From NCBI GenBank assembly GCA_011620765.1, contig WOYO01000082.1, positions 8,259-72,258 of the forward strand: a stretch of 64,000 nt of DNA. The letters are read 5' to 3'. The position numbers and the translations under genes are program-made. The DNA comes from Thermoplasmata archaeon. Its GTDB lineage: Archaea; Thermoplasmatota; UBA186; UBA287. The notes under the pieces are model-generated. The model was not told the origin of the DNA. It did not search any database and was given only the letters and a program-made list of their open reading frames with translations. Shown piece by piece: positions 3,145-39,625 of the stretch; positions within the stretch are counted from its first letter, which is position 1; every line of letters starts with the position of its first letter.

Positions 3145-4281
3145 CTAAGACCTCCTCAATATCCCAACAACGCATGAAGGACCTGAGCCACCTACATTGC
3201 TTATGAGCCCCACCTCTGCGCCCTTAACCTGATTGTGAGCCTCGTTATGAAGCTGCTTTACCACCTCTATAGCCATTGAGACACCTGTAGCTCCCACAGG
3301 ATGCCCCTTTGCCTTTAACCCTCCATCCGTATTCACAGGTTTTTTTCCATCGAAATATGTTTCTTTTTCTTTTGCGGCCTTTATCCCCTCTCCATGTTTA
3401 TAAAAACCTAAAGCCTCAATATTCTGGACCTCTGCGATCGTAAAACAGTCATGCACCTCTGCTACATCTATGTCCTCTGGTGCAACCCCAGCAACATTGT
3501 ATGCTCTTTTACCAGCTATCTCAACACCCTCAAGCCATGATATGTCTTCTCCCCTCTCAGCTAATGCCATTCGAGACACCGCTGCCTCACAGCTTGCAAG
3601 CTCTACATCCTTCTTTTCGCTAGTCAATATCATTGCAGCAGCACCATCGGATATAGGGCTGCAGTCGTATAAGCACAGAGGCTCGGCGATTATCGGAGAT
3701 CCGTAATACATCTCTTTCGTTATCTCCCTCTGAAACTGTGCATAAGGGTTTTTAGACGCATGATAGTGGTTCTTTATTGCTATCTCTGCGAGATCATCCT
3801 TTGTGCCTCCAATGTTTTTCAGGTAATAGCTGGCCATAAGTGCATAATAACCCGGGAATGTTATGCCGCAGGGCGCTTCATAAAATGCATCTCCTGCTGT
3901 CGCCAGGATCCCTGTTATCTCCGGTGTAGTTTTCGCGGTCATCTTTTCTACACCAACAACCATAACAGTCTTTGCAAAGCCTCCCTTGATCGCTCTGAAA
4001 GCTTCATGCAGTGCAAAGCTTCCACTGGCGCATGCGCTCTCAACGTGCGTTGCCTTTATGTTGTTTTTCAGGCCTAAACTGCCATAGAGCGCTGGCCCGA
4101 GATGCGCCTGCCCCTCAAACAGGTTCTGCGCGAAGTTGCCAACATAAAGCTCCTCTATCTCTTCGGGCGCGATCCCTGCATCTTCCATGGCTTTCGCCGC
4201 TGCCTCCACAGATAGCTCCATAGAGTTCTCAGCGTGTTTACCGAATTTTGTCATTCCCGTTCCTGCAACATACACATTCAT
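3145..4281 (-). CDS. thiolase-like protein (acetyl-CoA C-acetyltransferase, archaeal type)
   Basis: MNVYVAGTGMTKFGKH N-terminus, active-site Cys region SACASGS, C-terminal GHPVGATG and NVGGSG motifs of the thiolase fold. Confidence 0.85.
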   Translation of the reverse strand: MNVYVAGTGMTKFGKHAENSMELSVEAAAKAMEDAGIAPEEIEELYVGNFAQNLFEGQAHLGPALYGSLGLKNNIKATHVESACASGSFALHEAFRAIKGGFAKTVMVVGVEKMTAKTTPEITGILATAGDAFYEAPCGITFPGYYALMASYYLKNIGGTKDDLAEIAIKNHYHASKNPYAQFQREITKEMYYGSPIIAEPLCLYDCSPISDGAAAMILTSEKKDVELASCEAAVSRMALAERGEDISWLEGVEIAGKRAYNVAGVAPEDIDVAEVHDCFTIAEVQNIEALGFYKHGEGIKAAKEKETYFDGKKPVNTDGGLKAKGHPVGATGVSMAIEVVKQLHNEAHNQVKGAEVGLISNVGGSGPSCVVGILRRS

Positions 4282-4507
4282 TTATTCACCTCCGGTAGGA
4301 TCAGAGCCTATCTCTATTGGCTCCCCCACTCATCAAATTCAGTATATACCTCTCCAGATATATATGTGTAGCACAGTAGCGTATGGCGCAGAATAAAATA
4401 CATGCACCATACGTAACTGCCCTTTTATCAAAAAACCTGCAGGATCAGCTGTACATTCAGAGCCCTTCAAGGTGCAACAGGTATATATTAACAGTGCAAT
4501 TACTATT

Positions 4508-9053: not shown

Positions 9054-9785
9054 GTGGAACTGTATGAAGGTGTTGAGATCATAGAGAGCTATCCCGCACT
9101 CTACATAGAACAGATAGATACTATTGTGATCAGCGACCTGCATCTCGGCTATGAGAGCATAGCGGCTGAAGGAGGTATAATGCTACCGAAGGTGCAGCTT
9201 GAAGACGCTATAAGAAAGATGCAAAAGATAGTAAAGTCAAAAGAAAGCAGAAGGATAATAATATGCGGGGATGTAAAGCACGAATTCTCAGAAACAACCT
9301 ACCATGAGTTCAGGGAGGTAAGCTATTTCATAGATTTCCTGCACGAAGCTTTTGAAGAGGTTTTGCTGATAAAAGGAAATCATGACACATTCATTAACAG
9401 AGTTGCTAGAAGAAAAGGTGTTAAGGTGTGCGATAGGTACTCTGAGGGTGGTTTTCTATTCATCCATGGGGATAAGGACATAGACCTAAACATCAAAGAG
9501 AAGTTTCTGATAATGGGACATGAGCATCCATCGATAGTTCTCTATGATTCGATAAATAGAGAAAAGGTGAAGTGCTTTTTATACGGCGAGTATAAAGGAA
9601 AAAATATAATTGTCATGCCTGCCTTCAGCTATTTTGCGCTTGGAAGTGATATCAACACAACAACGGAGCTTCTTTCGCCCATACTGAGGAAAATAGGAGT
9701 AGGATCATTCAAAGCTATAGGCTTGATAGAAGGGGAGAGTTTGTTATCTTTTCCAGAAATCGACAGGATCTCTAATCTTTCTTAA
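9054..9785 (+). CDS. calcineurin-like metallophosphoesterase
   Basis: ISDLHLGYE, IICGDVKHEF, IKGNHD, GHEHP motifs. GTG start at 9054 (no in-frame ATG that keeps the DLHLG motif). Confidence 0.65.
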   Translation: MELYEGVEIIESYPALYIEQIDTIVISDLHLGYESIAAEGGIMLPKVQLEDAIRKMQKIVKSKESRRIIICGDVKHEFSETTYHEFREVSYFIDFLHEAFEEVLLIKGNHDTFINRVARRKGVKVCDRYSEGGFLFIHGDKDIDLNIKEKFLIMGHEHPSIVLYDSINREKVKCFLYGEYKGKNIIVMPAFSYFALGSDINTTTELLSPILRKIGVGSFKAIGLIEGESLLSFPEIDRISNLS

Positions 9786-10221
9786 GGATGATATCTCTTA
9801 TCCTGTATTCTATATCTCTTTTCCTGAGAACCAGGAGCATTATTGCTTCATCATAAAGGTGCTCATCATATCTATCCTCCAGCTCTCTGAAATCGACTGA
9901 AGCTTCATAAGGATCACTAACCAGAGAGAACATATCCAGAATAGCTCTGGAGCTATTGAGCACTTTCTCTATTGATTGGGGATTAAAATCTCTAATGCTG
10001 ACGCTTTTTGTATCTACGGTTATCCTTATCCTGTTCTCTATCTCCTCTATGAGCCCGTAAAGAAATGCAAGCTTCAAAAGATCCTCCGCTACCTTTGGCG
10101 GGACCCATCCCATATTTATAGATATGTAGTTCACAAAGCTCTTCTTATCAATCTCATCCGTGCTGTAACTTATAAATGGGCTGGCAACGGCAGCTTTTAC
10201 GATATCATCCTCCCGTGACAA
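9772..10221 (-). CDS. hypothetical protein (149 aa), apparently co-transcribed downstream of the SAMP-like gene
   Basis: ORF whose start overlaps the SAMP-like gene stop by 17 nt. No recognisable motif. Confidence 0.45.
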   Translation of the reverse strand: MSREDDIVKAAVASPFISYSTDEIDKKSFVNYISINMGWVPPKVAEDLLKLAFLYGLIEEIENRIRITVDTKSVSIRDFNPQSIEKVLNSSRAILDMFSLVSDPYEASVDFRELEDRYDEHLYDEAIMLLVLRKRDIEYRIRDIILKKD

Positions 10222-10405
10222 TCCGCACCACCTCTATAGTGTCCCTCTCAGTAAGATCTTCGTCAATTGGGGTAAGAGAGCCATTTTTCAAAACCAGGTT
10301 TTCGTTCTCCTCCAGTTCCAATGCATTCAACAAATCTCTAACCTTAGAATTGTTGTTGAGAGTGAGCATGGTTTCCTTGCCTTTGACAAAAACCTTTATT
10401 TGCAC
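10205..10405 (-). CDS. small archaeal modifier protein (SAMP) / MoaD-ThiS-like ubiquitin-like protein, C-terminal Gly-Gly
   Basis: GTG start: VQIKVFVKGKETMLTLNNNSKVRDLLNALELEENENLVLKNGSLTPIDEDLTERDTIEVVRIVTGG then stop. Beta-grasp pattern and terminal GG. The track ORF 10205..10504 carries a non-coding N-terminal extension that would read through the TATA box. Confidence 0.6.
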   Translation of the reverse strand: MQIKVFVKGKETMLTLNNNSKVRDLLNALELEENENLVLKNGSLTPIDEDLTERDTIEVVRIVTGG

Positions 10406-10426: not shown

Positions 10427-10436
10427 TATATAAAAG
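10427..10436 (-). promoter_or_regulatory. TATA box (minus-strand reading cttttatatacc) about 23-30 bp upstream of the SAMP GTG start
   Basis: Canonical archaeal TATA at the spacing expected for a leaderless transcript. Confidence 0.5.
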
Positions 10437-10617
10437 CTGGGGTAGCTTAGCGGACTAAAGCGCCGGCCTCGAGAGCCGGTGGGCGAAAGCCCTCGGGGGT
10501 TCAAAACAGCCCTTTCCCCACAAGTTGATTTCGCAAAGCGAAATCCAAGATTTGCCCTTTAGGGCAAATCAGCCTTTGGACGCTGTGCGGAAAGGAGTGA
10601 AAATCCCCCCCCCAGCG
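10436..10617 (+). tRNA. tRNA-Ser (anticodon CGA) interrupted in the T-loop by a ~98-nt insert (candidate intron at 59/60, about 10505-10602)
   Basis: Acceptor 5' GCTGGGG (10436-42), U8 A9, D-arm GCTT/AAGC with GG in loop, anticodon arm CCGGC-CUCGAGA-GCCGG (U33, CGA), long variable arm GGGC-GAAA-GCCC (class II), T-stem GGGGG + TTCAA (10495-10504). Then insert. Then AT + CCCCC (T-stem 3') + CCCCAGC (acceptor 3', perfect complement of GCTGGGG) + discriminator G at 10617. The contiguous sequence cannot form a T-arm without removing the insert. Confidence 0.6.
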
Positions 10618-30663: not shown

Positions 30664-31647
30664 ATGGATCTATTAGAGGTTAAGGATCTCAAAACATACT
30701 TTTACACTTATGAAGGCACTGTGAAAGCCCTGGAGGGTGTAAGCTTTTCTGTTGGAAACCGTAAAACCATGGGGCTTGTTGGGGAAACTGGATGCGGAAA
30801 GAGCGTCACAGCCCTCTCAATAACAAGGCTTATACCTGATCCCCCGGGCAAGATAATTGCTGGTAGCGTTCTCTTTAAGAAAAAGGACCTCTTGAAAGTG
30901 AGCGATGAGGAGATAAGAGCAATAAGAGGAAAGGACATATCTATGATATTTCAGGAGCCAAAGTCTGCTCTCAACCCTGTCTATACCATCGGAGATCAGA
31001 TAGCAGAAAACGTTCTTCTGCATGATGAAGACTTAAAGAACCTGAGCAAAAAAGAAAAGAAGAGAGAAGCCTGGGCAAAATCTATAGAGGCTCTCAGGGT
31101 GGTAGGGATAGCAGAGCCTGAGAGGATTGCCCGCTCTTACCCACATGAGCTCAGCGGTGGCATGTGCCAGAGAAGCATGATAGCTTTAGCGATGGTGTGT
31201 AATCCTTCATTGCTTATAGCTGATGAGCCAACAACAGCCTTAGATGTGACGATACAGGCACAGATACTTGAGCTCATGAAAGATCTGATAAAGAAGTTTG
31301 ACTCTTCTGTTCTTCTGATAACCCATAACCTTGGCGTAGTTGCTGAGACATGTGATGATGTTGCAGTGATGTACGCTGGAAAGATAATAGAGAAGGGCAA
31401 TGTAAGAGAAGTTTTTAAAGAACCATTGCATCCATATACAAAAGGATTGATGGAAGCAATACCGAGTGTTGAAAAAAGAAAGGAAGCGTTAAAGAGCATA
31501 CCCGGCTCTGTTCCAAATCTTATCAATCCTCCATCAGGCTGCAGATTTCATCCCAGATGCCCTTATGTCAAAGAGATATGTAAGGAGAAGGAGCCCGAGC
31601 TCTTTGATGGTAGGGTTGCCTGCTGGCTCTATGGAGGGGCAAGATGA
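30664..31647 (+). CDS. peptide ABC transporter ATP-binding protein (DppD/OppD-like)
   Basis: Walker A GETGCGKS, signature LSGGMCQR, Walker [14 protein letters not shown]-terminal oligopeptide-transporter extension. Confidence 0.85.
31525..31602 (+). repeat. 78-bp perfect direct repeat, copy 1 (3' coding end of the first ATPase gene)
   Basis: aatcctccatcaggctgcagatttcatcccagatgcccttatgtcaaagagatatgtaaggagaaggagcccgagctc is identical to 32505-32582. Encodes [26 protein letters not shown] in both paralogs. Confidence 0.9.
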
Positions 31648-32621
31648 TAGAGATGGAGAGAGCAACGACGGATACGATTATACTAGCAAAAGATCTGAAA
31701 AAATATTTTCCGGTGAGAGGAGGAGTTTTTTCCAGGGTTGTAGACTATGTTCATGCCGTCGATGGCGTATCTATTGATATAAAAAAGGGCGAGACCTTCG
31801 GGCTTGTTGGGGAGAGCGGTTGCGGTAAGACCACTTTCGGAAGAACGCTGATGAGGCTTATAGAGCCCGATGGAGGAAGGATAGTTTTTAATGGTGAGGA
31901 CATAACAAAAATAAAGGGAAAAGATCTCGCAGAGATACGCAGGGAGATGCAGATAGTGTTTCAGGATCCCTTTAGTTCTCTTAACCCGAGGATGACAATA
32001 AAGAAGATAGTTGGAGAACCTCTTCTGTTGAACGGCATAAAAGGTAAAGATCTGCGTGAGAGAGTCATCGATCTGCTTGCTCTGGTAGGGCTCAATGAAG
32101 AGCATATGAACAGGTATCCGCACGAGTTCTCAGGTGGGCAGAGGCAGAGGCTATGCATAGCCAGAGCCATAGCAACCAATCCAAAGTTCATAGTTCTTGA
32201 CGAACCGACCAGCGCTCTTGACGTCTCGGTTCAGGCACAGATCTTAAATCTACTTATAGATCTGCAAAATAGACTTGGAATGGGCTATCTGATGATAAGC
32301 CATGATCTTAGTGTTGTAAGGCACATAAGTCAGAGGGTTGCTGTGATGTATCTTGGTAAGATAGTGGAGAAAGGTAAGACAGAGGAGATATTCGAGAACC
32401 CACTACATCCATACACCAAAGCTTTGCTCTCAGCCGTGCCTGTGCCCGATCCAGATAGGAAAAGGAACAGAATACTGCTTACCGGAGATGTACCGAGTCC
32501 TGTTAATCCTCCATCAGGCTGCAGATTTCATCCCAGATGCCCTTATGTCAAAGAGATATGTAAGGAGAAGGAGCCCGAGCTCAAAGGTGATGAGCGCTCT
32601 GTTGCCTGCTGGCTCTACTGA
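31644..32621 (+). CDS. peptide ABC transporter ATP-binding protein (DppF/OppF-like)
   Basis: Walker A GESGCGKT, signature FSGGQRQR, Walker [13 protein letters not shown]. 4-nt overlap with the preceding ATPase gene. Confidence 0.85.
32505..32582 (+). repeat. 78-bp perfect direct repeat, copy 2 (3' coding end of the second ATPase gene)
   Basis: Identical to 31525-31602. Confidence 0.9.
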
Positions 32622-38700: not shown

Positions 38701-39625
38701 CCTCTATCCCAACCATCCTTTTCACATCCTTCAGCTCTCTTCCGCTCAGGATGCCTACCCTGCAACGGGTAGAGAGCGCTTTTAGAATCATTCGCATGCT
38801 CTCTGATAGTATTGCCTTCTCAGGGCTCTCTACTATAGGAGTGAGGGTTCCGTCATAATCAAGAAACACGGCTGGTATACCCCTTCTCAATTGTGCAAAT
38901 ATTGTGCCCATTTTTTCAAGAGCTGGCTCAGGTTTTTTCAGGATGGAGAGCGCGGAGAGATCTTTCACAACCACATCAGCATCCATAAGTCCTTTTCCCG
39001 TGCGGTCTATCCCTATTACAGGTTTGAAGCCCTTTGCTGCCTTAACCCCTGCCAGAGAGTCTTCAACCACCGCGCACCTTTCGGGCAAACACCCTAAGCG
39101 CTTTGCTGCTTCAAGGAATATCCCCCGCTTGTCTGGAGCCTCATCTCCACCGACAACAACGTCAAATAGTTCTATCACCCCTGCCTTCTCCAGGATTTTC
39201 CTGCAGTTTCTGCTCGCAGAAACTGCAGCAACCTTCACGCCCATACGCTTCAGCTCCTTTATGAATGCGATCGTTGAGGGAAACGTTCTCACACCACCCT
39301 CAAGTTTTTCAAGGAACCTTGCATTCTTTCTGTTTCCGATGCCGCACACAGTGTTCTGAGAAAGATCGTTAGCAGGATTACCATATGGAAGGGATATATT
39401 TTTAGATCTAAGAAAGCTCTCAACCCCTTCATATCTGGGCTTTCCGTCTATATAAAGATAGTAATCTTTATCCTCAAAGCCAAAAGGCTCTAAAGTCTCT
39501 TTCCATGCCTCTGCATGAATAGTAGCAGTATCTGTTATCACACCATCCATGTCAAATATAGCGCAATCCTTTATCTCAACATTTTTTTTGATTTCTGGCT
39601 CTTTCGGCTCTTCTGGTATGCCCAT
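35789..39625 (-). CDS. three-domain fusion: HAD-IA beta-phosphoglucomutase-like / HAD-IIB trehalose-6-phosphate phosphatase-like / GH65 glycoside phosphorylase (1278 aa)
   Basis: Residues about 1-215: IFDMDGVITDTATIHAEAWKE...VEDSLAGVKAAK (beta-PGM-type HAD). About 240-480: VFLDYDGTLTPIV...IGDDRTDEDAF (OtsB-type T6PP motifs). About 500-1278: GH65 N-terminal beta-sandwich and (alpha/alpha)6 catalytic region (...GEAYRGLIMWDELFIFPF...; ...HGIMGPDEF...). Confidence 0.8.
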   Translation of the reverse strand: MGIPEEPKEPEIKKNVEIKDCAIFDMDGVITDTATIHAEAWKETLEPFGFEDKDYYLYIDGKPRYEGVESFLRSKNISLPYGNPANDLSQNTVCGIGNRKNARFLEKLEGGVRTFPSTIAFIKELKRMGVKVAAVSASRNCRKILEKAGVIELFDVVVGGDEAPDKRGIFLEAAKRLGCLPERCAVVEDSLAGVKAAKGFKPVIGIDRTGKGLMDADVVVKDLSALSILKKPEPALEKMGTIFAQLRRGIPAVFLDYDGTLTPIVESPEKAILSESMRMILKALSTRCRVGILSGRELKDVKRMVGIEGICYAGSHGLEMECDGLNKAIEQPDLKDIENELKRTLGPVKGVLFERKRFSIAVHYRMVDKDVGKVKKGVKEVARNHPELKLSSGKKVLELMPRVDWDKGKALLGFIEKLWINGSKVVPIYIGDDRTDEDAFRAIKGWGISILVGSRKTAADYTLKDTSDVEIFLKALLDNFEEDTWVLRYNGFVPEEEKTREALCTLGNGYFGTRGASPESDFHYPGTYIAGCYNRLKSRIDGKTIENESLVNAPNWLPLTFRIGDKWFDERLFDILDYREELDMKRGLLTRFIRFKDDQNRLTAITEKRLVHMANPHLAALELKLVAENWSGEVELRASLDGRVKNSGVARYQQLNNTHLKPVKSRSNGEIISLQVETNQSHIRIAEAARTRITKDGKPVDVRRKDEKDRGSVSQSFSVNIRQGESICVEKTVSLFTSRDRAVAESMMAAEKEVRAAECFQKLLERHVLAWEHLWRRCNLEVVNNKRTMQILHLHIFHLLQTMSVHSIDMDAGVPPRGLHGEAYRGLIMWDELFIFPFINLRIPDITRALLMYRYRRLPEARRSARNAGHKGAMYPWQSGSDGREESQRIHLNPLSGRWRDDNTWLQKHINIAIAYNIWQYYQVTGDLHFLSYYGAEMLVEISRFWASIAKNIHGRYEIHGIMGPDEFHDRYPGAEQPGIDNNAYTNVMVAWTLCRTLDALKLLSDERREALEEDLGITPEEKELWENMSYRMKIPFHGDEIISQFDRYGTLEEFDWDLYRKKYRNLQRLDRILEAEGDTTNRYKLSKQADVLMLFYLLSEDELKNMFNRLGYQLNREIICKNIDYYMKRTSHGSTLSRIVHSWVLAKYSKERSWQLFREALESDISDIQGGTTSEGVHLGAMGGTVDLIQRGYTGMETRGEMLWFDPNLPEELKMLEFNLLYRQHNIRVHIDKENLIISASPSNAAPIGIVFKGAVVDLGPGETRSFPLSSWSKSLF

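Follow-up and report, generated by a model that had tools for sequence, protein, structure and literature searches.

Background

The junction between positions 59 and 60 in the T-loop of archaeal transfer RNAs (tRNAs) is a recognised site of non-canonical introns, which have been reported mainly from the Crenarchaeota (PMC4090602). Similar introns of the Thermoproteales reside at both canonical and non-canonical positions (PMC4090602), and the occurrence of similar introns in unrelated tRNAs of this order has been read as transposition, at least as the matter is summarised in two sources (PMC4090602; PMC10714607, citing Fujishima et al. 2010). In the Euryarchaeota, the box C/D RNA of the tRNA-Trp intron is released by splicing, often as a circle, and excised archaeal tRNA introns are circularised, with circles found in every archaeon examined (PMC12558985). 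The subject of this report is a 98-nucleotide (nt) insert at position 59/60 of a tRNA-Ser(CGA) gene, which lies in a 64,000-nt stretch of contig WOYO01000082.1 from a Thermoplasmata archaeon (this whole stretch is referred to below as the window), together with the family of elements to which the insert belongs.

The Euryarchaeota, which are the traditional home of this lineage, are described in reviews as poor in non-canonical introns, and 98 nt is long for the 59/60 class. To our knowledge, mobile tRNA introns are documented essentially in one crenarchaeal order and the mechanism of their spread is not established. The insert described here is probably, to judge from its sequence and that of its relatives, a protein-spliced intron of the bulge-helix-bulge (BHB) type that belongs to a portable family with a conserved structured core. 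This twin-hairpin core is one instance of a multi-copy RNA element that had not been described before. More tentatively, and at a probability somewhat below one half, we suggest that the core has a function of its own, as an RNA or as a protein-binding module, and is not simply carried along by the intron.

The interrupted tRNA gene and its splice junctions

The insert interrupts a class II archaeal-type tRNA-Ser(CGA) gene (10436-10617) in its T-loop, between positions 59 and 60. Removal of 10506-10603 in silico yields a complete 85-nt tRNA-Ser(cga) with the 7-nt T-loop TTCAAAT, as recognised by ARAGORN. The junctions were located with a T-arm scan for a stem, TTCAAA, an insert, T and the complementary stem, together with a UUCA:UGAA helix. 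The parts of the gene and of the predicted splice motif are as follows.

10436..10505 (+): 5' exon, with acceptor strand GCTGGGG, D arm, anticodon arm with CGA and long variable arm (ARAGORN partial call)
10495..10505 (+): end of the 5' exon, T stem GGGGG (10495-10499) and T-loop nucleotides 54-59, TTCAAA (coordinates checked)
10506..10603 (+): 98-nt putative intron at tRNA position 59/60 (T-arm scan; splicing restores the cloverleaf)
10604..10617 (+): 3' exon, U60, T stem CCCCC, acceptor strand CCCCAGC and discriminator G; CCA is unencoded
10495..10506 (+): 5' half of the splice motif, GGGGG, UUCA (10500-10503) and AAA (10504-10506), with the predicted cut after A10505 (by hand)
10598..10609 (+): 3' half of the splice motif, UGAA (10598-10601), the 3-nt bulge AAU (10602-10604) and CCCCC (10605-10609)

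An earlier note on this sequence had placed the insert at 10505-10602. Its size of 98 nt stands, and the ends are corrected to 10506-10603 by the splice-motif rule, according to which the archaeal splicing endonuclease cuts between the second and third nucleotides of a bulge. The two placements differ by a one-base slide inside a run of A, so that the spliced product is identical. The anticodon-loop case agrees with the same cut rule (PMC4090602). The predicted 3' cut, after A10603, falls in a true 3-nt bulge adjoining the T stem, and forcing the UUCA:UGAA helix to form costs only 2.3 kcal/mol relative to the minimum-energy fold. The splice motif is BHB-like but relaxed on its 5' side, and in one other copy (L104; L numbers denote collected loci) as well as in the short intron family described below, the inner helix is of 2 base pairs (bp), with the pairing judged by eye.

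Because the T-loop is interrupted, ARAGORN reports only a truncated tRNA in the window, and the exon part reaches 28.6 bits with the Rfam tRNA model, against a gathering score of 29. With its default settings ARAGORN finds no tRNA at all in eight related loci that were scanned whole (L001, L005, L006, L007, L008, L009, L011 and L013), at least two of which (L001 and L005) hold a complete tRNA with a T-loop intron. Standard tRNA finders miss such genes, and the tRNA complements of this lineage will therefore look incomplete.

Replacement of one intron by another at the orthologous locus

The proteins encoded nearby assign the window to an uncultured Thermoplasmatota lineage, for which the nearest public genome is GCA_034190325.1, a metagenome-assembled genome (MAG) from a tar biofilm (91-94% protein identity). 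The gene order around tRNA-Ser(CGA) is the same in this closest relative (L001/L010), and the DNA flanks are 92-97% identical to those of the window. At the same position, the tRNA-Ser(CGA) of L001 has a different intron of 36 nt, AAUGAAGGAUUGCAUCCUUUCAAAACCUGCAUGAAA, which is 36% identical to the window intron and has only the junction bases in common with it. A short intron, with a compensatory change in its small hairpin, is present as well in a more distant relative (L005), whose neighbouring membrane protein is 61% identical. Since L005 has the short type too, the short intron is the older state at tRNA-Ser(CGA), and the 98-nt intron of the window is a recent, derived replacement.

The exons of the window are intact and 97% identical to those of the relative. 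Their T-stem pair 50-64 is A-U in L005, G-U in L001 and G-C in the window; we had considered a gene-conversion tract, given the C at T-stem base 64 in the window and the T in its relatives, and rejected it, as the three loci form an ordinary compensatory series. Further orthologous tRNA-Ser loci were sought through the neighbouring phosphoesterase, and below about 60% protein identity the gene order is gone.

Fold of the insert

Folded alone, the insert reaches -40.4 kcal/mol, as compared with -22.7 +/- 3.5 kcal/mol for 200 dinucleotide shuffles, none of which does as well (z = -5.0); the whole pre-tRNA has z = -5.8. The remark in the earlier note that there is more order here than in a random spacer is borne out by these values, and so are the individual pairings that it had described. 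CCTTTCC (10511-10517) pairs with GGAAAGG (10589-10595) at the coordinates given there. The minimum free energy (MFE) fold reproduces hairpin 1, GATTTCGC-AAA-GCGAAATC, at 10527-10545 and hairpin 2, GATTTGCCC-TTTA-GGGCAAATC, at 10549-10570, each where the note had placed it. The extension of the closing helix, with its 2x2 loop, is likewise found: the MFE fold adds CACA:UGUG (10519-10522 with 10584-10587) and then CA:UG across the 2x2 loop. In RNA form the hairpins read GAUUUCGC-AAA-GCGAAAUC and GAUUUGCCC-UUUA-GGGCAAAUC, and both are perfect. The 64-kb window has seven perfect hairpins with stems of 8 bp or more and loops of 3-5 nt, where Markov resamples give 3.6; the pair in the insert, 3 nt apart, makes up two of the seven, and two perfect hairpins three bases apart are not a chance pattern. 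The elements of the fold are listed below.

10511..10522 (+): closing helix, 5' strand, CCTTTCC (10511-10517), a C mismatch and CACA (10519-10522) (MFE fold)
10584..10595 (+): closing helix, 3' strand, TGTG (10584-10587), C and GGAAAGG (10589-10595) (MFE fold)
10507..10510 (+): alternative outer helix, 5' strand CAGC, with its partner GCTG at 10582-10585 (RNAalifold preference)
10524..10526 (+): 3-bp helix, GTT with AGC (10571-10573), closing the junction around both hairpins (family alignment)
10527..10545 (+): hairpin 1, GATTT-CGC-AAA-GCG-AAATC, 8 bp, 3-nt loop (fold and family alignment)
10546..10548 (+): linker CAA between the hairpins (YAA in the family) (family alignment)
10549..10570 (+): hairpin 2, GATTT-GCCC-TTTA-GGGC-AAATC, 9 bp, 4-nt loop (fold and family alignment)
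10571..10583 (+): mostly single-stranded AGCCTTTGGACGC, from hairpin 2 to the closing helix, variable between copies (alignment)

The CAGC:GCUG and CACA:UGUG helices are mutually exclusive. The segment AGCCTTTGGACGC may pair with CCACAAGTT at 10516-10526, and the extended helix of this segment (10571-10583) has 78% of its cells paired across the family. We model the core as a three-way-junction RNA of ~70 nt, in which a short helix closes the junction with the two hairpins. No second copy of the element was found in the 64-kb window by a repeat finder, by a motif search or by a covariance model run with its filters off.

A family of ten copies

A homologue in L006, which was found through the neighbouring membrane protein and has different yet complementary hairpin stems, supplied the conserved blocks for a pattern search. 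When 185,579 species-representative genomes were scanned with this pattern, 89 loci were returned, mostly chance matches in AT-rich bacteria; four were real copies, all from one close-relative MAG. A metagenome scan added four further copies, all in assembly WOYI01. Ten copies were recovered in total, five of them in tRNA T-loops and five free-standing. The insert is a real structure under selection, in keeping with the order seen in the earlier note, and it is also one copy of a multi-copy element, which must therefore have moved or been duplicated in one way or another. When the ten copies were used to build a covariance model, their own scores were 72-110 bits on the sense strand and 30-58 bits on the antisense strand, and the model detected no additional copy in any other collected locus. 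Three scans of viral contigs, together with a model search of the 89 loci from the last two of them, gave chance matches only; the sole match of the first viral scan was judged by eye. Every copy that carries an organism name comes from a Thermoplasmatota MAG. The tRNA-borne copies are the following.

Window: tRNA-Ser(CGA), T-loop copy
L022: tRNA-Gly(GCC), intron 95% identical to that of the window, in the closest relative
L024: tRNA-Asp(GUC), intron 91% identical to that of the window, in the closest relative
L104: tRNA-Leu(CAA), intron 86% identical to that of the window, in another metagenome
L006: 5' part of tRNA-Arg(CCU), chimeric locus, in another metagenome

All five are in the sense orientation and exactly at 59/60, and all have the UUCA:UGAA helix and the same junctions. 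Removal in silico restores the tRNA in the four intact hosts, Ser(cga), Gly(gcc), Asp(gtc) and Leu(caa). Among these four the introns are 83-95% identical, as compared with only 54-68% for the exons, and the window intron differs from the nearest other copy at 5 positions. A single junction, a uniform orientation and a perfect tRNA after removal in four intact genes together describe a transposing family of BHB introns.

Three of the free-standing copies (L068, L086 and L112) follow tRNA-Leu(CAA) downstream, at a distance of about 35 nt; the other two, L108 and L113, are found in other places. With upstream flanks that are 90% identical, L068 and L086 represent the same locus in two versions, and the T-loop introns of their tRNA-Leu(CAA) genes differ: one is of the short AUGAAGG type, and the other is a 28-nt shell, ACAGCCCUUUC-AGA-GAAAGGCGUGAAAA, which has ends of the window type and lacks the hairpin core. 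The free copies do not have the intron's termini in common. A splice motif was sought around them by hand, and only a 6-bp terminal helix, UCAAGA:UCUUGA, was found, without bulges. The two hairpins are swapped in the free copies, but a simple circular permutation of the intron was also discarded, since the 3-nt linker between the hairpins is kept. Between two metagenomes, the free copies L086 and L112 are 92% identical and their downstream flanks only 68% and 50% identical, which, as a single comparison, goes in the direction that a functional RNA would show.

A second T-loop intron family, of about 35-42 nt and of the form AUGAAGG-hairpin-CCUUUCAAAACCUGCA..UGAAAA, is also located at 59/60. 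Its hosts are tRNA-Ser(CGA) (L001, 7381-7499 (+); L005, minus strand) and tRNA-Leu(CAA) (L068 and L112), and its small hairpin shows compensatory changes between copies. The presence of different introns at 59/60 across alleles and tRNAs means that at least two intron families occupy this site.

Several other arrangements were encountered in the course of these searches. In L113 (about 1630-1800) the free copy has no 3' closing strand, and a 19-nt direct repeat, GAGATCTCGGAGCAGTGAG, lies on either side of it. L112 holds a full tRNA-Leu(CAA) (about 170-330) and, 4 kb away (about 4190-4320), the last 18 nt of it again, followed by the free copy. This layout, like the heterogeneity of the population at tRNA genes, recalls an integrated element flanked by attachment (att) sites. 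The connection is no more than suggestive, as Pfam recognised neither an integrase nor any other gene of a mobile element in the 4 kb between the two tRNA-Leu pieces. In a Thermoplasmata MAG (CAZPCW01; L087, 2410-2760), a tRNA-Arg(CCG)-like gene is interrupted in its T-loop by an unrelated intron of 32 nt with a UUCG:CGAA helix and probably has another insert in its D region; downstream are at least three partial copies of the tRNA 3' end, each after a GGAAATC-TTT-GATTTCC hairpin. Tandem arrays of 3-4 hairpins of the form NNAAATC, 3-nt loop, GATTTNN, in which the pentamers of the window occur in the opposite order, are found several per genome, some of them beside tRNA genes, in Methanolliviera (L034, L058 and L063), Woesearchaeota (L039 and L071) and Nanoarchaeia (L084). 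These opposite-order arrays, including that of L087, were rejected as members of the family; the model gives them 14-23 bits, and L087 has no match. A Methanosarcinales MAG (CAYWNO01; L027, L077, L081 and L091) contains four copies of an unrelated repeat of ~150 nt, in which an AT-rich stretch is followed by a GC-rich block, ...TTTTTTAGTCGAACGCGTGCGAGCGAACCCGATTCGCTCGCATGTCCC..., and which matched the pattern by chance.

Conservation and covariation

The hairpin feet, GAUUU and AAAUC, are invariant in both hairpins of all ten copies. The linker is UAA in eight of the ten and CAA in the window and L104, so that its last two bases are invariant, as are the U and the A that flank the hairpin pair. 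The inner stems, by comparison, read CGC, GCC, GGC, UGGC, GCCC, UCCC, UCGC or UUCC and are always accompanied by the matching complement, and the loops vary freely. Changes on both sides of the inner pairs of hairpin 1 are seen in 3-4 copies, and for hairpin 2 the inner stems GCCC, UCCC, UCGC, CGC and UUCC each occur with their complement. In a MAFFT alignment that had not been fitted to the structure, 92% of cells pair, versus 25-48% with slid partners, and the covariation score is matched by 1 of 500 shuffles. The 3-bp junction helix, GYU:AGC, has 87% of its cells paired and includes GC, GU and AU pair types.

The outer part of the fold is less constant. In the 7-bp closing helix 86% of cells are paired, with one-sided (wobble) changes only, among them G-U pairs in L104; the helix is shortened in L024, which lacks 4 nt of the 5' arm, and in L006, which lacks most of it. 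This helix is real in the window and only loosely conserved in the family. In L086 and L112 the alternative helix CAGC:GCUG is replaced by GAGC:GCUC, a compensatory substitution. The closing helices contain G-U wobbles, and the model gives 107 bits to the sense strand versus 39 bits to the antisense strand; together these features point to a constraint on the transcribed strand. The earlier note had proposed that conservation be looked for in orthologous loci, and there it fails, in that the nearest relative has the different 36-nt intron; it is among the paralogous copies that both conservation and compensatory changes are found.

A search of Rfam 15 with the core from the window and from the free copy L086, at the gathering threshold and at E-values up to 10, gave no match, and four known types of RNA motif were set aside individually. 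A box C/D RNA does not fit, as there is no UGAUGA, the only CUGA-like string is in the foot of hairpin 1, and no Rfam C/D family matches at E up to 10. The remaining three were judged by eye. For an H/ACA RNA, there is no pseudouridylation pocket and the ACA lies 5' of the hairpins. The string CUGAUUU...AAA recalls the CUGAUGA...GAAA of the hammerhead ribozyme, but Watson-Crick A-U pairs stand where the ribozyme has its catalytic G residues. At the UAA linker a kink-turn was considered, and the GA dinucleotides there sit in standard pairs.

Gene neighbourhood and other features of the window

Beside the tRNA gene, a string of three protein genes is kept in all close relatives.

10205..10369 (-): small ThiS/SAMP-like protein, ending in GG
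9772..10221 (-): DUF2240 protein
9054..9785 (+): metallophosphoesterase

Elsewhere in the window there are a perfect 12-bp hairpin with a 4-nt loop (39201-39228) and a 101-nt direct repeat (31502-31602 and 32482-32582), the copies of which are 91% identical and 980 nt apart.

A proposed mechanism and the alternatives to it

The likely course of events at a BHB intron in the T-loop can be outlined as follows. The precursor would keep its T stem, and the UUCA of the T-loop would pair with the UGAA near the 3' end of the intron, so that the cut sites after A10505 and A10603 would come to lie four bp apart on opposite strands. This geometry would be that of the classic anticodon-loop intron, shifted to the other arm that has a 5-bp stem and a 7-nt loop. 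The splicing endonuclease would then cut and an RNA ligase would join the exons into a normal UUCAAAU T-loop, and the intron would be released, most likely as a circle, if the analogy with other archaeal tRNA introns extends to this one. Because the intron end ...UGAAAA pairs with UUCA, which is common to all T-loops examined, the intron should be spliceable in almost any such tRNA. Candidate routes for its movement might include reverse splicing followed by reverse transcription, recombination at the short T-loop sequence, and integrating elements that carry 3' parts of tRNA genes. The conserved core, in which the feet and the YAA linker are fixed and the inner stems free as long as they are complementary, is present outside of tRNAs as well.

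A number of observations weigh against this interpretation. The AAA at the 5' site is a 3-nt bulge only if an isolated C10507-G10597 pair forms, and is otherwise part of a 7x2 internal loop, and the probability of the central UUCA:UGAA helix in the unconstrained ensemble is only about 4-5%. Endonucleases of the euryarchaeal type are reported to need strict motifs, with relaxed motifs cut only by the types with broad specificity (PMC5829648). The closing region fits two competing models, CCUUUCC:GGAAAGG plus CACA:UGUG versus CAGC:GCUG plus an extended CCACAAGYU:AGCCUUUGG helix, and RNAalifold favours CAGC:GCUG. The covariation statistics are weak because there are only ten copies, several of them nearly identical, and a swap of hairpins, instead of independent substitutions, could account for part of the compensatory differences that separate the intronic from the free copies. 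Lastly, the chimera of a tRNA-Arg 5' part and a tRNA-Ser 3' part in L006 yields no tRNA when spliced. That locus (about 3665-3890, minus strand) contains, in order, the 5' part of tRNA-Arg(CCU), the element, a remnant like the short Ser intron (an extra hairpin) and the 3' exon of tRNA-Ser(CGA). The gene order breaks at the chimera, and at exactly this point two contigs, L007 and L008, come to an end, each from another assembly of the same organism. The matching 5' side, ThiS-tRNA-Ser, is carried by a contig of its own (L004), which stops within the tRNA. The chimera has the look of a faulty assembly over a repeat or over a polymorphic intron, and it may also be a real recombination between two element-bearing tRNA genes.

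The alternative that fares best accepts that the intron is real and mobile and holds that its internal structure has no function of its own: the fold would protect the folding of the tRNA or the presentation of the splice sites, or would serve the spread of the intron, and the free copies would be decaying relics of rearranged tRNA genes. The lax conservation of the closing helix in L024 and L006 suits this idea, as does the shell without a core, ACAGCCCTTTC-AGA-GAAAGGCGTGAAAA, in one tRNA-Leu(CAA) allele, the existence of which means that the core is dispensable for a spliceable intron. The free copies also keep T-loop-like flanks (ATCAAGAGAGCC versus TTCAAAACAGCC), as relics would, and L113 is without its 3' closing strand. 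A generic need to stay folded, however, does not describe a core in which ten foot base pairs and a linker are strictly invariant and the inner stems and loops are free, and decay does not fit well with a free copy that is at the same position beside tRNA-Leu(CAA) in two metagenomes and is 92% identical there, versus 50-68% for the flanks. We regard this alternative as unlikely.

A second alternative would make the insert a miniature transposon at the DNA level, such as a miniature inverted-repeat transposable element (MITE) or a hairpin-ended derivative of the IS200/IS605 insertion sequences, which targets TTCAAA and survives by virtue of its spliceable ends. The earlier note had raised a MITE-like insertion in the T-loop, and in that form the suggestion is not supported. 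The element occurs in multiple copies, its ends can be read as an imperfect inverted repeat, CAGCCCTTTCC ... GGAAAGGAGTG, and two subterminal-like hairpins recall the ends of IS200/IS605 elements; the hairpins of the insert, though, are adjacent to each other and not subterminal, and the putative terminal repeat is not conserved in L024 or L006 and has G-U pairs in L104. No unambiguous target-site duplication is present: TTCAAA and TCCCCC flank the insert, and the free copies are flanked differently. The flanking runs of A (TTCAAA|A ... A|AAAT) could mask a 3-bp duplication, yet these A residues are a requirement of the splice motif, and the unrelated short intron family has the same ones. One free copy, L108, is preceded by TTCCAA, but the free copies lack the termini of the intron, and there is no transposase beside L108 and L112, the two free copies for which neighbouring open reading frames were scanned, nor any copy in the viral contigs scanned. 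The five copies in tRNA genes all occupy a single phosphodiester position, in the sense orientation, and the G-U wobbles render the fold strand-specific, with the difference in score given above. Copy count and orientation were taken from pattern scans of genome and metagenome collections, among which there was no complete genome. On this evidence we consider a transposon of this kind quite improbable.

It is highly improbable that the tRNA gene is dead or the insert an assembly artefact with an incidental structure, in spite of the contigs of other assemblies that break in or beside this tRNA (L002, L004, L007, L008 and L011) and of the non-functional Arg/Ser chimera in L006, since the window exons are intact, 97% identical to those of the relative and improved at pair 50-64 from G-U to G-C, the 5 differences from the nearest copy mean that the intron was not pasted in from another locus, and a misassembly would need two precise mis-joins at short repeats.

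A broader, and in our estimation unlikely, proposal is that the twin-hairpin three-way junction represents a novel kind of small structured RNA gene, one that travels on a portable, T-loop-specific intron. Any tRNA gene with a UUCAAAU T-loop might serve such an RNA as a ready promoter and processing site. Splicing would supply a stable circle, which could enter other pre-tRNAs by reverse splicing and then be fixed in DNA. This RNA would also be encoded by the free-standing copies, as ancestral genes or as genes with expression of their own, and the two invariant GAUUU/AAAUC helices might bind a dimeric protein or one with tandem sites.

Comparison with known systems

The insert resembles the non-canonical 59/60 introns of other Archaea in its insertion point, in the transplantable motif formed by the T stem, a 4-bp helix and a bulge, and in the T-loop that is restored by its removal (PMC4090602). 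It differs from that group, the members of which are mostly from the Crenarchaeota and the Thermoproteales, in that its host is a member of the Thermoplasmatota and in that the intron carries a conserved structured core. As among the transposing introns of the Thermoproteales, highly similar introns are found here in tRNAs of different identity, and gain or replacement can be seen between close relatives (the window versus L001, and the two tRNA-Leu(CAA) alleles). Unlike those introns, the tRNA-borne copies of the present family are at the T-loop position only and in a different phylum, at least two families compete for one site, and the core also stands free outside of tRNAs.

The box C/D RNA in the tRNA-Trp intron offers a parallel in that a discrete, functional-looking module resides in a long tRNA intron. 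The present element is without the C (RUGAUGA) and D (CUGA) box pair, a kink-turn or an Rfam match, and it is in the T-loop and not in the anticodon loop; since it occurs in several tRNAs, it cannot be a guide that is dedicated to its own host tRNA. With MITEs and the palindrome-ended derivatives of IS200/IS605, the element shares its short length, the lack of coding capacity, the multiple copies and the hairpins, and its ends can be read as an imperfect terminal inverted repeat. It departs from them in having no unambiguous target-site duplication, a single orientation and one exact junction among the tRNA-borne copies, and strand-specific wobbles.

For the annotation of this lineage, the practical consequence is that genomes annotated by routine procedures will seem to lack several tRNAs. 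The conserved and covarying module, with its free-standing relatives and no match in Rfam, is a candidate for a new non-coding RNA. More broadly, these observations would add a second, unrelated lineage with mobile tRNA introns to the known one, in which a replacement has been caught between genomes that are 92-97% identical, and the existence of two families at one exact T-loop site provides a much cleaner system in which to ask how introns move.

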